Assembly (NCBI GenBank): GCA_963726245.1 | Contig: CAVSBT010000038.1 | Location: 1-64,000 of the forward strand | Length of the DNA: 64,000 nucleotides | From: an uncultured Chloroflexia bacterium | GTDB lineage: Bacteria; Chloroflexota; Dehalococcoidia; DSTF01; JALHUB01 | Direction: 5' to 3' | Shown: one piece after another, positions 15,915 to 54,076 of the stretch | How the letters are laid out: each line of letters opens with the position of its first letter | Position numbering within the stretch: the first letter of the stretch is position 1 | The notes under the pieces: model-generated | Database searches by the model: none | What the model was told of the DNA's origin: nothing | The model's input: the letters and a program-made list of their open reading frames with translations, nothing else | Program-made: the position numbers and the translations under genes

Positions 15915-15992
15915 TGGTCGGGGTGGGCAGATTCGAACTGCCGACCTCACGGTCCCGAACCGTGCGCTCTAACCAGGCTGAGCTACACCCCG
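15915..15992 (-). tRNA. tRNA-Pro (anticodon CGG)
   Basis: Minus strand CGGGGTGTAGCTCAGCCTGGTTAGAGCGCACGGTTCGGGACCGTGAGGTCGGCAGTTCGAATCTGCCCACCCCGACCA; cloverleaf, TTCGAA T-loop, encoded CCA. Confidence 0.96.
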
Positions 15993-48728: not shown

Positions 48729-49097
48729 TCAGGCGCTCTTGGCGCTGCCGAGGATGCTTTCCACTGTCGCTCGCAATGCGGCGGGACTGAACGGCTTCTG
48801 AACGATGCCGTCGGCTCCGACGCGCCGGGCATCCGACTCCTGCGCCAGCGCCGTCAGAAGAAGGATGGGCATGCTGGCCATCGACGCCTCTGCCTTCAGC
48901 CTCTGGCAAACGGCGAAGCCGTTCAAACGTGGCATCGCCACGTCCAACAGCACCAGATCAGGCTGATGCTGGCGGGCCATCTCTATGGCCTCGGGCCCAT
49001 CGGCTGCCTCCAGGGTGCGTATGCCCGGGCCATCCAGGATGGCATTCACCAGGGTCCGGATGGCGGGCTCGTCATCTGCGACCAGGACCGTTTTCAT
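48729..49097 (-). CDS. Single-domain response regulator
   Basis: VLVADDE, PDLVLLDVAMP, LLTA, QKPFSP. Confidence 0.92.
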   Translation of the reverse strand: MKTVLVADDEPAIRTLVNAILDGPGIRTLEAADGPEAIEMARQHQPDLVLLDVAMPRLNGFAVCQRLKAEASMASMPILLLTALAQESDARRVGADGIVQKPFSPAALRATVESILGSAKSA

Positions 49098-50509
49098 GCT
49101 ATCGCTCCTGAGGTGAGAGCAGCTCCCGAGGTGGAGCAGGAGGGAGGCTCCAGGGGCAGACAGAAGCCGAAGGTGCTTCCCTTCCCCGGACAGCTCTCCA
49201 CCCACATCAGCCCGCCGTGCCACTCCACCAGCCGGCGCGCGATGGTCAGGCCCAGGCCGGCGCCGCTTGACTTGCCGGACGGGCCGGCGGCGCCTTCTCC
49301 GTCCGGCTGGGCGGCTCGATAGAAGGGCTGGAAGATCCTCGCCTGGTCCTCCTGAGAGATGCCCACCCCCCGGTCTCGGACGGCGATGCTCGCCCCGGCC
49401 GGGCAGGGAGCACCCTCTGGCCCCGGCCGGCCGAGATGCAGCGTGGAGGGCCGGGCCAGACAACCGGGCGCCACCTCGATGCGGATCGGCGCGCCAGGTG
49501 GGGAGTAGTTGACGGCATTGCTCACCAGGTTGGCCAGCACCTGGGTTAGCTTGTACAGGTCTGCTATCGGGCGAGGCACGCCGGCTTGAAAGCGGATGGA
49601 GAAGCGTGAACGCCTGTGCTCATTGCCCCAGAGACTGACGACATACTCCGCTACCAGTCGAAGGTTGACGGGCTCCAGGTTCAGTTTGACGCGGCCCGAC
49701 TCCAGGCGTGTCAGGTCCAGCAGCTCGCCGATGAGGGAGCCCAGACGCACCGATTCCTGGTTGATTAGGCAGATCCAGCTCTTCTGCACGTCCGCGCTCA
49801 CCTCCCGCGAGAGGAGGAGCTCGCTGAAGCCCTGTAGGGCGGTGAGGGGCGTCCTTATTTCGTGGGAGGCGACGGAGACGAACTCCTGGGCTCGGCGCCC
49901 TTGCTCGGCCGCGGCCTCCATCACCCGCAGCTTCTCGAGGGCCATAGAGGTCTGGTCGGCCAGGCCCTGGAGAAGGTCGGTCTGGTCAGGGGAGAAAGGG
50001 AATCCAACCCGCCGGCCGACCACCAGCACGCCCAGGCCCTGGCTCGCCGAGCGGATGGGCGCTGCCAGCAGCGTACCGGCGGTCCGGGCGCCGTTGAAGC
50101 AGGAGGGGAGATCATCCAGGAGGGGATGCGGCGCCTCCACCATAAGGGGAGCGGTCGCCTCGAGGGCGGCGTCGGCGAAGGCGATGGTGGGCGACTCTGC
50201 GGCGTCGAAGACGGCCGTCGAGCGGCCGACGCGCAGGGCGCGGCAGGCAGGCCGCCCGTCGTCCGTGCGGACCAGGAAGAGGGCCGCCAGGTCCACTCTT
50301 ACGACCGCACAGACGGCTGATAGTACAGCTTCATAGAGGCTCTCCGGCGTGGTGGCGGCGAAAACCTGAACCGCGCTGCGGTACATCGCCTGGGCGCGGG
50401 CGGTCAGCCTGACCAGCTCGATGCGCTCTCGCCAGGGCTGGCTGTCAGCGTCCGGCGAAAGCGGCTCGAGGGGCCGGAGTGCGAGAATGGAGGAGGCCTT
50501 CGCACTCAA
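49094..50509 (-). CDS. GAF-domain sensor histidine kinase (no obvious TM helices)
   Basis: SHEIRTPL, NLVSNAVNYS, DRGVGI, FQPFYR, GAGLGL; N-terminal GAF. Confidence 0.9.
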   Translation of the reverse strand: MSAKASSILALRPLEPLSPDADSQPWRERIELVRLTARAQAMYRSAVQVFAATTPESLYEAVLSAVCAVVRVDLAALFLVRTDDGRPACRALRVGRSTAVFDAAESPTIAFADAALEATAPLMVEAPHPLLDDLPSCFNGARTAGTLLAAPIRSASQGLGVLVVGRRVGFPFSPDQTDLLQGLADQTSMALEKLRVMEAAAEQGRRAQEFVSVASHEIRTPLTALQGFSELLLSREVSADVQKSWICLINQESVRLGSLIGELLDLTRLESGRVKLNLEPVNLRLVAEYVVSLWGNEHRRSRFSIRFQAGVPRPIADLYKLTQVLANLVSNAVNYSPPGAPIRIEVAPGCLARPSTLHLGRPGPEGAPCPAGASIAVRDRGVGISQEDQARIFQPFYRAAQPDGEGAAGPSGKSSGAGLGLTIARRLVEWHGGLMWVESCPGKGSTFGFCLPLEPPSCSTSGAALTSGAIA

Positions 50510-50567
50510 GTGGATTCACCTTCGGTGGCAGGCCTGACGTCCATGGCCAGGCTGGCAGGTCCGCGTC

Positions 50568-50894
50568 CTACCGCTCACGCCGGTGGGCGCGTTCGCTGAG
50601 ATCGCCCGTCGTGCGGTGGGACTGCATTCCGCTCTGAGCGGAGAGGCGACGGATGACGCCCTGGGCCACGAAGCCCACGCCAAGCTCCACGCAGTCGCGG
50701 TAGGTGGTGAAGATGGAGCGGTCGAGGAGCCACAAGCCCTGTTCGTTGAGGTCTTCATGATGATCGGTTCGGAGTCGGAGGAGGCGGCGCAAGCGTCCCA
50801 GGTACGCGTTCTGCACCGCGGACACGTCATCCTCGTCCCTGAGGTCATCCTGGCAAGCGCTCAGCTCTACAGGATCACGAGCGAACTCGATCAC
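50568..50894 (-). CDS. Small helical hypothetical protein
   Basis: AYLGRLRRLLRLR...LNEQGLWLLDRSIFTTYRDCVELG; co-oriented between the response regulator and the kinase; GAGGG RBS. Confidence 0.7.
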   Translation of the reverse strand: MIEFARDPVELSACQDDLRDEDDVSAVQNAYLGRLRRLLRLRTDHHEDLNEQGLWLLDRSIFTTYRDCVELGVGFVAQGVIRRLSAQSGMQSHRTTGDLSERAHRRER

Positions 50895-50951
50895 GGTTAG
50901 GTCCCTCTTCCCGTCCTGCCTTCCTTGCCGAAAGGCAGTGCTCTGTCTCTC

Positions 50952-51734
50952 TTAGCCGGCCTGGCGCTCTTCGCCCGGCTCCGGCGCGGGCGCTACATCG
51001 ATGCCGACCAGCCCCTTCTGAAGGGCATAGCGAATAAGGTCGGTGCGCGTCTGGGCGTGGAGCTTGCTCATGATGTGGGCCTTGTGAGCCTCCACCGTCT
51101 TGACGCTGATGTAGAGCTCGTGGGCTATGCGCTGGTTGGAGTAGCCCTCGGCGATTAGCTGGAGGACCTCGCGCTCACGGCTGGTGAGCAGGCCATAACC
51201 TGACCTGCCCTCTTCGCTCCTGGCCTGGAGGAGGTACTCGCCGGCTGTGCCTGCATCGGAGATCGACGCGCTAAAGTAGGTGTTTCCCCGGTGGACGGCT
51301 TGGATGCCGAGGATAAGCTCGGCGGCGTCGGACTTCTTGACTATGTACCCGCAGGCGCCGGCGCGGAGGGCAGCCACTATTTGCTCGTCCTCCATGTAGC
51401 CGGTCAGGATGAGCACCTTGGTCTTGGGGAGGCGCCGGCGAATCTGGCGTGTGGCCTCCAGTCCGTTGAGGCCGGGCATCACCATGTCCATCAGGACAAC
51501 ATCGGGGAGCAGCTTCTCGGCTGTTTCCATGGCTTCGCGGCCGTTGCTGGCGTCGCCCACCACCTCGATCTCCTGGTGCACTTCCAGGAGAAGGCGGAGG
51601 GCCTGACGGAGAACGGCGTGGTCGTCGACGATGAGGACGCGGATCTTGCCGCTGGAGCCGCGGCTCCAGCCGCCGGCCTCGCTGGGTCGACGATTACGGT
51701 CCGCCATCTCCTCTGAGGATGCAGGCTCCTTCAT
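50952..51734 (-). CDS. NarL/LuxR family DNA-binding response regulator
   Basis: [50 protein letters not shown]. Confidence 0.94.
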
Positions 51735-51972
51735 AAGGGGCGCTCCTTGCCTTCCGCTCTCAGGGGCAGGGCCCTCAAGCCTAGAAGCCGGTCGCCAACC
51801 CACTGTGGCGACTCTTCGCCTGGAAGTTTCCCCACGCCATTGCTAGCCAGCAGTCCGCCCGGCGTTGCGTGATCCGCTCTTCCCAGCCAAGAGCGGCCCA
51901 AAGCCTACCATAACCTTCCAATTACCGGCAAGGATGTTCGCAACTCCGGGGCCAGGATGCCAGGAATTATCA

Positions 51973-52415: not shown

Positions 52416-52802
52416 CTAGCCAGATGGCCGCAGGCTTTGCTCTGCCGCCGCTCGCTGCAGACAGAAACGCGTGTAGGAGTCGTAGGCGTTGCTGACAGCG
52501 GTCATGATGGCCCGCTGAGGCGGCCCCACGTAGCGCCTTTGGAGGGCGTCCAAGAGGACCCCCACGCTGGCATCGAGGTCGCCGTTCATCAGGATGTCGC
52601 GTACCAGGACCTCGGCACGGGGCAGGACGCCGCGTGTAGCGACCTCCACCGCCTGGTGGCGGCGCACGTCGACCTCGATCTCCACGGACACAACGGAGGG
52701 GGCGCCCACAGGCGCCAAGCTTTGGGGAAGGCGGGCATGGCCTACGAATATTACCGTGCCCTCTTCTTTGTCCTGTAATCCGTCGCCGCCATGTTGCCTC
52801 AT
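52416..52802 (-). CDS. DUF3870-like protein
   Basis: TVIFVGHARLPQ...VEIEVD...RRYVGPPQRAIMTAV; GGAGG RBS; family assignment from memory. Confidence 0.65.
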   Translation of the reverse strand: MRQHGGDGLQDKEEGTVIFVGHARLPQSLAPVGAPSVVSVEIEVDVRRHQAVEVATRGVLPRAEVLVRDILMNGDLDASVGVLLDALQRRYVGPPQRAIMTAVSNAYDSYTRFCLQRAAAEQSLRPSG

Positions 52803-52986: not shown

Positions 52987-53136
52987 GAGTAGCGAACGCT
53001 ATTCACGGGGTGGGGTGGGGTGGGGCGGGCCTTGTTGCTTCCTGCCTGTTGCATGTTCCAAGCAACAAGGAACAGGCTAACAAACGCCTACCAGCGCCAT
53101 ATGGGCTGGTCCTGCGTCAGGCCGTTGAGTCGATTC

Positions 53137-53343
53137 CTACAGGCGGAGCTTGCCGTGTGAAGGCTGGCGCCTGCGCTGACGGGTGTGGCCGTCTTCCTGG
53201 TCAAGGAGTTCGATGGCCGGGGGCGATACTGCCTCATGTACGTAGCCACAGCAAAGACACGTGCTGTAGACGCCGTACCAGTCTCTCTCCATGATCATGG
53301 ACCCCCGACAGCGGGGGCAGTTACGTGGCAGGGTGCCCTGCAT
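53137..53343 (-). CDS. Small Zn-ribbon protein with basic tail
   Basis: CPRCRGSM...CLCCGY, RQRRRQPSHGKLRL; AGGAGG RBS. Confidence 0.78.
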   Translation of the reverse strand: MQGTLPRNCPRCRGSMIMERDWYGVYSTCLCCGYVHEAVSPPAIELLDQEDGHTRQRRRQPSHGKLRL

Positions 53344-53407
53344 GTTTGACCTCCTGTTAAGGCGCAGAAACCCCCCGTCCAGATACATGCTGGCCAGATG
53401 CCTGTTC

Positions 53408-53515
53408 GCTGCCTCCGGGATTGACTGAGGGGTTCGGGCAGAAACCTCGCCCTACTCAATCGGGAGATTCACCCTAGCCGGGTGGTTCCCCGTCCCCAAC
53501 AGGGTTCCGGCAGAG
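53408..53515 (-). ncRNA. c-di-AMP (ydaO/yuaA-type) riboswitch, variant
   Basis: Minus strand CTGCCGGAACCC..GGGACGGGGAACCA..GGGTGAATCTC..GAGTAGGGC..GCCCGAACCCCTCAGTCAATCCCGGAGGCAG follows the ydaO block order. Confidence 0.8.
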
Positions 53516-53582
53516 CAGCTCTGGCCCCCCTCCCATCCGCCAAAACGCCTGTGCCAGCGCTGTCCTTTGTGATTTCGCCAAC

Positions 53583-53611
53583 AGGTTAGAATACTGCTCG
53601 GAGCTTGTCAA
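53583..53611 (-). promoter_or_regulatory. Sigma-70 type promoter driving the riboswitch leader
   Basis: TTGACA-17 bp-TAACCT on the minus strand. Confidence 0.65.
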
Positions 53612-53677
53612 CCCCCACTGTAAAGGAATATCCAGAAAATGATGCAGGCCCATCAGGGGCGCCCGCGGAGAAGTTGC

Positions 53678-54076
53678 CTAGCCAGCGCTTATCTTGTCAA
53701 TGGCCCGGCGCAGCCGCGCCTCCGCCTCCTGCGCCACTTCGCGCAGGGCAGGGTTATCCAGCACGCCCAACAGGCCCAGTGGGTCGACAGCGGCCACCAC
53801 GCTGCCGTCGCCCTCCTCGTAGACTATGACGTTGCAGGGCAGGAGCAGCCCTACGGAGGGGTCTGCCTCCAGAGCGCGGTGCGCCAGGGGAGGGTTGCAG
53901 GCCCCCAGAATAACGTAGCGCCGGAAGTCCTTGTCCAGCTTCGCCTTCAGCGTGGCCCTAACGTCGATCTCGGTGAGAACTCCGAAGCCTTCCTCCTGGA
54001 GAGCGGCTCGGGCCGCCTGCACCGCCTGCTCGTAGTCAAGCTTGAGCCTTGTCCGAAAGCCGATCTCCTTGGTCAC
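53678..54076 (-). CDS. DUF302 domain protein
   Basis: EGFGVLTEIDV, YVILGACNP, GLLLPCNVIV. Confidence 0.9.
   Translation of the reverse strand: MTKEIGFRTRLKLDYEQAVQAARAALQEEGFGVLTEIDVRATLKAKLDKDFRRYVILGACNPPLAHRALEADPSVGLLLPCNVIVYEEGDGSVVAAVDPLGLLGVLDNPALREVAQEAEARLRRAIDKISAG

Follow-up and report, generated by a model that had tools for sequence, protein, structure and literature searches.

Riboswitches are able to change their ligand through a few substitutions in a conserved core, as in the GEMM-I class, in which such substitutions have shifted recognition from cyclic diguanosine monophosphate (c-di-GMP) to cyclic GMP-AMP (cGAMP). Ligand-switched variants are also mentioned in PMC5888326. 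For the receptors of c-di-AMP (cyclic diadenosine monophosphate), the leaders of Bacillus subtilis kimA (ydaO) and ktrAB have been described as OFF switches that operate via transcription termination (excerpt of PMC5575661), and the family has reportedly been linked to osmoprotectants (excerpts of PMC7288161 and PMC5575661). The printed sequence of a crystallised ydaO aptamer contains CCCGUCAGCUAACC, the canonical form of the junction considered here, together with a complementary pair of P7 loop and 3' tail (PMC5393176). We have analysed a locus on contig CAVSBT010000038.1 of an uncultured Chloroflexia bacterium (assembly GCA_963726245.1), whose positions 1 to 64,000 are called the window throughout, and in which a c-di-AMP (ydaO/yuaA) riboswitch with a deviating core precedes a gene for a 68-residue zinc-ribbon protein. 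Our preferred reading, which we hold with a probability of about 60%, is that this aptamer is an ancestral translational OFF switch decaying in the window lineage, an early-stage degenerate copy and not a ligand switch.

An earlier note on this DNA, made from the letters alone, had described a promoter, an aptamer, an AGGAGG ribosome-binding site (RBS) and a 68-residue CxxC/CxxC protein with an Arg-rich tail, all of which have been recovered on the minus strand at the positions given in Table 1. The search with the Rfam ydaO-yuaA covariance model (RF00379) that the note had proposed has returned a match at 53522..53395 (minus strand) of 53.1 bits (E 1.7e-9), above the curated (gathering) cut-off of 38 bits and extending over the full model (positions 1-134), and a whole-genome search has given the same result. 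All helices P1-P7 have been aligned by cmscan, with 7 non-standard pairs and lower posterior probabilities around P2-P4, and GGGUGAAUC, the GAACCC strand and the A of CAG have been retained. By descent and by covariance model the element belongs to the c-di-AMP riboswitch lineage, and it shares with canonical members the whole-model match, the sense orientation in a 5' leader and a diadenylate cyclase in the genome. Unlike these, it lacks two defining features, namely the conserved 3' junction and the pseudoknot between P7 loop and 3' tail. The 3' core reads CCCCUCAGUCAAU against the Rfam consensus CCCGuCAGCUAAC, in agreement with the altered core proposed earlier, and the junction expected as CCCG(A/U)CAGCUAACC is found as CCCCUCAGUCAAUC, with four near-invariant bases changed. 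Further deviations comprise GCCGAAA to GCCGGAA, a G-run shorter by one base (ACGGGGGAA to ACGGGGAA), CC to GG in the P7 loop and GGAAAGG to GAACAGG in the 3' tail. The target, a 68-residue zinc-ribbon protein instead of a transporter or wall hydrolase, and a platform that looks translational and not terminator-based, set the locus further apart from the canonical riboswitches.

The core alteration is genuine and restricted to one lineage. Four runs of four different studies, one of these runs being possibly that of the source sample, have supplied Logan contigs for a comparison with the window over 53100-53700. Record 1 of X1 spans this whole interval with 7 differences and one gap, which leave the aptamer untouched, and record 5 of X2 (53275-53662) and record 19 of X7 (53255-53496) are identical to the window; all three (studies P1, P2 and P4) carry every variant letter together with the shorter G-run. 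Record 11 of X6, more divergent with 29 differences, shows the canonical letters at 53420, 53423, 53424, 53429 and 53507 and an extra base at 53487. Because contigs of different studies share the variant letters, the variant did not arise from faulty assembly, and the concern of the earlier note that the substitutions might be private to this assembly has not been borne out. Besides these three contigs, the homologues collected with an altered core include L092, one of 80 metagenome loci encoding relatives, in which a separate metagenome assembly shows a sister variant (CCCCUCAGCCAAU / CCCCUCAGCCAAUC, 60.6 bits) before the same gene. An artefact of assembly, binning or sequencing might otherwise have been suspected from the draft state of the genome (2.68 Mb in 46 contigs, 82.8% complete, 6.3% contamination), from the homopolymer-length nature of one change and from the absence of the exact 31-nucleotide variant core among the matches in metagenome_contigs; the last result is uninformative, as near-identical records are possibly omitted from that collection and L092 is one base off.

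Among the relatives, the canonical form prevails. Twelve close metagenome relatives are canonical at 87.1-101.8 bits, including L064, which encodes an identical protein, and the aptamer of a genome of the same genus (G001) scores 99.3 bits. The aptamers of close relatives can be matched to that of the window letter by letter. Orthologous aptamers in relatives score 86-104 bits, and so do those of family f1, save the window (53.1) and L035 (51.9). When 43 orthologous aptamers are aligned together with 2 paralogous ones, CCCCUCAGUCAAUC and the shortened G-run are seen in the window alone. A motif census of 89 regex-matched related aptamers, which contains some duplicates between collections and 69 distinct loop/tail combinations, has yielded the canonical form in 87 and the variant in 2, the window and L092. 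In other orders, the four positions read G, CU and C in all 15 census-matched aptamers (of 17 Rfam matches), and 6 of these 15 have CAA in place of CAG.

The clearest sign of decay has been found in the pseudoknot, which has been assessed by per-sequence duplex energies because the MAFFT alignment shifts the register of the tail between genera. The canonical pairing CCUUUCC:GGAAAGG is replaced elsewhere by compensatory versions (among them CCCUUC:GAAGGG, CUUCUC:GAGAGG, AGCCCU:AGGGCU), and the loop:tail duplexes of the 87 other aptamers have a median of -10.4 kcal/mol (range -14.6 to -6.2). The window reaches -3.1 and L092 -2.8 kcal/mol, compared with a mean of -5.3 for shuffled tails; both strands have been changed without compensation, and the same tail base has turned from A to C in the window and from A to G in L092. 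Regarding the rate of change, a comparison of the window with L092 gives differences at 6 of 128 aptamer, 5 of 118 leader, 2 of 51 platform and 3 of 165 coding-sequence (CDS) positions, the last all synonymous. The aptamer distance relative to the synonymous distance (dS) amounts to 0.54 for this pair, and 55 canonical pairs have a median of 0.18 and a maximum of 0.50. With L008 as the outgroup, 12 aptamer changes and a deletion fall on the window branch and 2 changes on that of L007, at 8 versus 5 changes in the CDS. We have also considered that the 0 aptamer versus 6 leader differences of X1 might reflect purifying selection on the variant; this has been rejected because X1 and L092 share the same leader states, and the haplotype of X1 has been read as a recombinant instead. 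Taken together, lineage restriction, uncompensated pseudoknot loss and divergence at about the leader rate fit relaxed constraint better than a new ligand, and, judged from these comparisons, the sensor of the window lineage is probably weakened or dead and no longer senses its signal properly.

The combination of riboswitch and zinc-ribbon gene has turned out to be widespread. RF00379 lies directly upstream of the orthologue at 18/19, 16/20 and 9/17 loci, that is in 43/56 genomes of the order, and by family in f1 (16/16), f3 (2/2), f4 (13/14), f5 (12/12) and f2 (0/12). Of 20 loci sampled from 11 further families in other orders, 17 have the riboswitch, and the three misses all belong to f26 (0/3). 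Leaving out one locus (L013) whose genome, G045, is flagged as unpublished turns these counts into 17/18 and 42/55, and that of the motif census into 86/88, and none of the claims rests on this locus. Judged by this distribution, the pairing is ancestral in the Dehalococcoidia-like class, and the unusual c-di-AMP target that the earlier note had considered has thereby gained substance through 43/56 and 17/20 loci. The riboswitch has been lost before the same gene in families f2 and f26. At L086 and L099, remnants such as GGGUGAAUC are discernible by eye upstream of the gene, with no Rfam match at E<=0.1, and L078 (465-626) has a different junction variant, CCCUCAAGCUAACC, at 49.6 bits; these three look like further stages of riboswitch loss. 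The f1 relative L035 (G003:C20, 338-458) has an aptamer without the P2 hairpin that reads CCCUAACCCGAUAGCUAACC, at 51.9 bits and with the same gene downstream.

In the canonical relatives of the genus, the step controlled is most likely translation, with the switch OFF in the presence of ligand. A generic scan of the window has found no terminator-like site between aptamer and ATG, and in L007 and L064 the tail GCGGAAA and the RBS stretch GCAGGAG both complement a UUUCUGC box (tail:box -8.7, box:RBS -8.6 kcal/mol), the two alternative folds being recovered as minimum-free-energy structures, one in L064 and the other in L007, respectively. The missing terminator-like site and the alternative pairings of tail, box and RBS therefore suggest a translational OFF switch. 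Its presumed logic, high c-di-AMP keeping the gene off, would be that of kimA and ktrAB in Bacillus subtilis (as excerpted from PMC5575661). It would differ from these in that alternative pairings of tail, UUUCUGC box and RBS would take the place of a terminator-like site, and in the window both pairings are weakened (tail:box -3.7, the other -4.9 kcal/mol).

The window holds the local copy of a class-wide ancestral unit of promoter, c-di-AMP riboswitch and small zinc-ribbon gene. With c-di-AMP bound, the 3' tail (GGAAAGG) would be held in the pseudoknot with the P7 loop (CCUUUCC), and the UUUCUGC box, from which the tail is withdrawn, would be free to pair with the Shine-Dalgarno sequence, turning the gene OFF; without ligand, the tail would pair with the box and free the ribosome-binding site, turning the gene ON. 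The window lineage (the window, the X1, X2 and X7 contigs and L092) has acquired about ten extra aptamer substitutions, four of them at otherwise invariant junction positions, and has lost one base of the G-run, both of its pseudoknot strands having changed in an uncompensated manner. We infer a loss of binding, upon which the zinc-ribbon gene would probably have escaped c-di-AMP control and would most likely be constitutively translatable, its protein still being under strong purifying selection. For L092, with its platform intact (-7.2 and -8.6 kcal/mol) and its pseudoknot lost, a constitutive ON state is predicted, and the weakened platform of the window would be consistent with further drift of a disused switch.

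Several observations weigh against decay and have to be balanced with those above. The aptamer passes the Rfam cut-off, and its helices can be aligned along the whole model. In a review, the residues that line the two ligand sites have been tabulated under an unclear numbering (excerpt of PMC7288161); under a tentative mapping, with A9 as the A that directly follows GCCG of the P1 strand and A93 as the A of CAG, only the A9-equivalent has been changed (to G), a change that also occurs in L014 (66.9 bits) and L015 (64.0 bits). Under the same mapping, the listed A of CAG is flanked by the four changes of the junction, none of which hits a listed contact. By this mapping, residual binding is neither proved nor excluded. 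The haplotype with the variant is found in runs of three studies besides that of L092 and, being so widespread, is not strongly deleterious; X1 differs from the window outside the aptamer only, a pattern that we have attributed to recombination. For the rate argument there is a single pair within the clade, and its changes are few (6 in the aptamer, 3 synonymous); moreover, the translational model has been worked out on one genus, other genera having differently built platforms.

An artefact is essentially ruled out by the independent contigs with every variant letter and by the sister variant. A rival reading is a still working c-di-AMP riboswitch, in which the changes are tolerated or retune the response, for instance towards lower affinity, a single functional site or independence from the pseudoknot. 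The score above the cut-off with P1-P7 alignable, the retained GGGUGAAUC, GAACCC strand and A of CAG, a haplotype that persists in several environments, a genome predicted to make c-di-AMP and other low-scoring natural versions (L035 without P2, L078 with CCCUCAAGCUAACC) would all agree with it. We consider it unlikely, though to be taken seriously, since four positions that are unchanged in 87/89 related and 15/15 other-order aptamers have been altered together, the pseudoknot is at the level of shuffled sequences, the platform pairings are weakened as well and the aptamer diverges within the clade at about the leader rate. A changed ligand, for instance another cyclic or linear dinucleotide, as the earlier note had suggested, appears highly improbable. 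The changes do cluster in the strand linking the pseudo-symmetric halves, beside the listed ligand-site adenine (by the tentative mapping onto the excerpted table), and the fold is broadly retained. Yet the variant is confined to a single shallow lineage and a single gene (2/89 aptamers), the other riboswitch copies of the genome are canonical, the window and L092 differ at the variant position 53424 (U versus C) and in the base at one and the same position of the tail, no compensation exists for the lost pseudoknot, and matching changes in the pseudo-symmetric half are missing. In having few conserved-core changes within a recognisable aptamer, the window variant resembles the ligand-switched riboswitches of the GEMM-I type, few core substitutions being enough to alter specificity in other riboswitch classes; unlike the known examples, which are conserved and recur across lineages and genes, it belongs to one shallow clade and one gene and is still changing. 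A sensor that works with new properties, having either another (di)nucleotide as its ligand or a c-di-AMP response that uses one site and needs no pseudoknot, is a long shot; if true, it would give the ydaO class its first natural variant in specificity or architecture, controlling a class-wide zinc-ribbon effector. Decay of an ancestral OFF switch thus remains the reading that we prefer.

The protein controlled by the ancestral switch has been strongly conserved. Its 68 residues contain C9, C12, C29 and C32 in a CxxC...CxxC arrangement and end in the Arg-rich tail RQRRRQPSHGKLRL. The 140 database relatives share 60-97% identity and bear the source name 'Dehalococcoidia bacterium'; a full-length orthologue is present in 56/60 other genomes of the order (three without a match, G017 with a weak partial one), and a class-wide profile search has given a match at E<=1e-10 in 75/201 sampled genomes, about 60 of them full length. 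C29 and C32 are present in every one of 48 aligned sequences (48/48), in which the tail R55-Q-R-R-R-(Q)-P-S-H-G-K-(L)-R-L68 is invariant or nearly so. Ratios of nonsynonymous to synonymous distance (dN/dS) of 0.056-0.059 versus L010 and L011, and a dN of 0 at a dS of 0.54 versus L064, demonstrate strong purifying selection. An AlphaFold2 model based on the 48 sequences predicts a three-stranded ribbon at residues 8-39 (strands 15-21, 24-29 and 35-39) with a predicted local distance difference test (pLDDT) of 85-92 over the ribbon (residues 11-40 / 8-39), a low-confidence tail and a mean of 75.4, and the predicted fold shows the features of the zinc-ribbon superfamily, four Cys, two knuckles and a three-stranded sheet.

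In the predicted three-stranded ribbon with two CxxC knuckles, the protein resembles ribbons of the Rpb9/RPC10/TFIIS type and ZifS of Thermus thermophilus (PDB 8yoz); it differs from them in its basic tail, and no match to them is significant. Foldseek against the PDB has given no match at E<=0.001 (best E 0.066), with generic ribbons (Rpb9/RPC10, eIF2-beta, ZifS) in the top rows, and a sequence-profile search of the PDB only a weak ferredoxin-like match to NuoI (E 0.004). The literature searched for ZifS has yielded nothing but work on zeolites. Neither RUBY_RBDX (20.7 bits, cut-off 26.5) nor Lar_restr_allev (21.2 bits, cut-off 28.6) in Pfam, nor Zn_Ribbon_TF or TFS4 among the zinc-ribbon families, has scored above its cut-off; the best NCBIfam match reaches 14.6 bits at a cut-off of 120, and an Atlas search has returned unnamed clusters only. 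For the invariant basic tail RQRRRQPSHGKLRL, these searches have given no named family, and our guess is that it might bind nucleic acid or the ribosome or RNA polymerase. Candidate fusion proteins with a C-terminal ribbon have been set aside, as their N-terminal part has no Pfam domain and they are probably over-extended calls of open reading frames (ORFs).

Table 1. Features of the riboswitch and zinc-ribbon locus in window coordinates.
Feature	Position	Strand	Sequence or basis
Promoter	53583..53611	minus	-35 TTGACA 53611..53606, 17-nt spacer, -10 TAACCT 53588..53583
5' leader	53516..53578	minus	conserved AAUCACAA at start, near likely transcript start
c-di-AMP (ydaO/yuaA) riboswitch aptamer, degenerate copy	53395..53522	minus	RF00379
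G-run short by one base	53487..53488	minus	ACGGGGAACC, in relatives ACGGGGGAACC
P7 loop, 5' half of lost pseudoknot	53441..53449	minus	GAGGUUUCU, canonical GACCUUUCC
Variant 3' junction	53420..53429	minus	C53429 (canonical G), U53424 (C), C53423 (U), U53420 (C)
3' tail, pseudoknot partner; anti-anti-RBS in the model	53401..53410	minus	AGCGAACAGG, canonical AGCGGAAAGG
UUUCUGC box, putative anti-RBS	53364..53370	minus	role inferred from pairing energies
Shine-Dalgarno AGGAGG	53350..53355	minus	6 nt before ATG; conserved in alignments of relatives
68-aa zinc-ribbon ORF, ATG at 53343	53137..53343	minus	translation, orthologues, selection, fold
GC-rich stem-loops past stop codon	53030..53092	minus	possibly terminator; no clear U-tract

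In the surroundings of the aptamer, the promoter is well preserved: TTGAC of the -35 element is invariant and a TAnnnT -10 element aligned in 7/7 and 13/13 sequences of two alignments of relatives. It has not been listed by a generic promoter scan because its -10 element matches only 3/6 consensus bases. An RNAalifold consensus of 13 canonical relatives contains a leader hairpin of CAGCGCUGGC (53562..53553) and GCCAGAGCUG (53525..53516) around a G-rich loop, and the TCACAA element of the leader is conserved in the alignments of relatives, those without a riboswitch included. In these riboswitch-less relatives, a fixed promoter layout TTTCACAA-N3-TTGACA-N17-TAAnnT-N8-TTTCACAA has been observed (L101, L111, L113, L116, L117, L120, L124-L126, L133, L134, L136-L138 and L140). 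The pattern TTCACAANNNTTGAC occurs exactly once per genome in 4/5 f2 genomes, always at the zinc-ribbon gene, with 0 occurrences of the reversed control, and the window has AAUCACAA at the leader start (53564..53571) and a degenerate CTTTACAG before the -35 element (53612..53625). The TTTCACAA boxes may be operator boxes, perhaps of an autoregulation. Near the zinc-ribbon locus of genome G184, a cobalamin riboswitch (RF00174, 39.6 bits, cut by the locus end) has been noticed at L165 1-125 (minus strand).

An alternative start at 53388 would give an 83-residue ORF; this start is not conserved in relatives, and the 68-residue ORF is therefore taken as the gene. Downstream of it, the generic scan has listed a terminator-like site at 53092..53071, and the stretch 53136..53011 folds at -42.3 kcal/mol with the arms CCUUGUUGC / GCAACAGG(AAGG); a (GGGGT)n-like run of the G-quadruplex type (GGGGTGGGGTGGGGTGGGGCGGG, 53003..53029) adjoins these stem-loops on the plus strand, opposite to the gene. 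The zinc-ribbon gene appears to be monocistronic. Its neighbours on the minus strand are a DUF302 protein upstream (53678..54076) and a DUF3870 protein downstream (52416..52802), followed further downstream by a GAF-histidine kinase and a LuxR-type response regulator (49094..51803). Among relatives, the neighbourhood varies, with DUF3870 in f1 and ABM in f4 downstream and DUF302 or SDR upstream; because it is not conserved, no operon partner can be inferred. The sole other Rfam match within the 64-kb window is a tRNA gene (15918..15992, minus strand, 65.9 bits).

At the level of the genome, there are signs of a c-di-AMP regulon. The diadenylate cyclase for which the earlier note had advised to search is encoded by one gene with a diadenylate-cyclase domain (DAC, PF02457; 142.2 bits, 316-residue open frame), by which the organism is predicted to make c-di-AMP. 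Canonical RF00379 copies lie before a trehalose-phosphatase gene (L001, G000:C37:30112-30250, 96.6 bits) and a family-2 glycosyltransferase (GT2) gene (L002, G000:C10:6005-6143, 83.3 bits), and a sub-threshold match (L004, G000:C15:252844-252958, 27.3 bits) precedes a TreT-type trehalose synthase gene. This suggests a regulon centred on trehalose, a compatible solute, and sister copies before trehalose genes are a further likeness to the canonical riboswitches, in line with the osmoprotectant link mentioned above for the family.

Searches of the literature have returned no paper that combines a c-di-AMP riboswitch with a zinc ribbon and nothing relevant for such a riboswitch in Chloroflexi, although an earlier listing in Nelson et al. 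2013 is possible. For scans of the kind that led to this locus, a caution follows: when one genome alone deviates in the core, decay is far more frequently the reason than a change of ligand. The repeated loss of a riboswitch over one gene (f2, f26, L086, L099), with the window lineage at an early stage, constitutes a natural experiment that helps in weighing the importance of conserved aptamer positions and of the pseudoknot. The durable finding, and a more interesting lead than the variant core, is the class-wide riboswitch/zinc-ribbon unit, by which a protein with a dN/dS of about 0.06 and an invariant 14-residue basic tail joins the trehalose genes in the same regulon as a new c-di-AMP target. 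The small conserved zinc-ribbon protein looks like a new c-di-AMP-controlled effector of osmotic or ion homeostasis.

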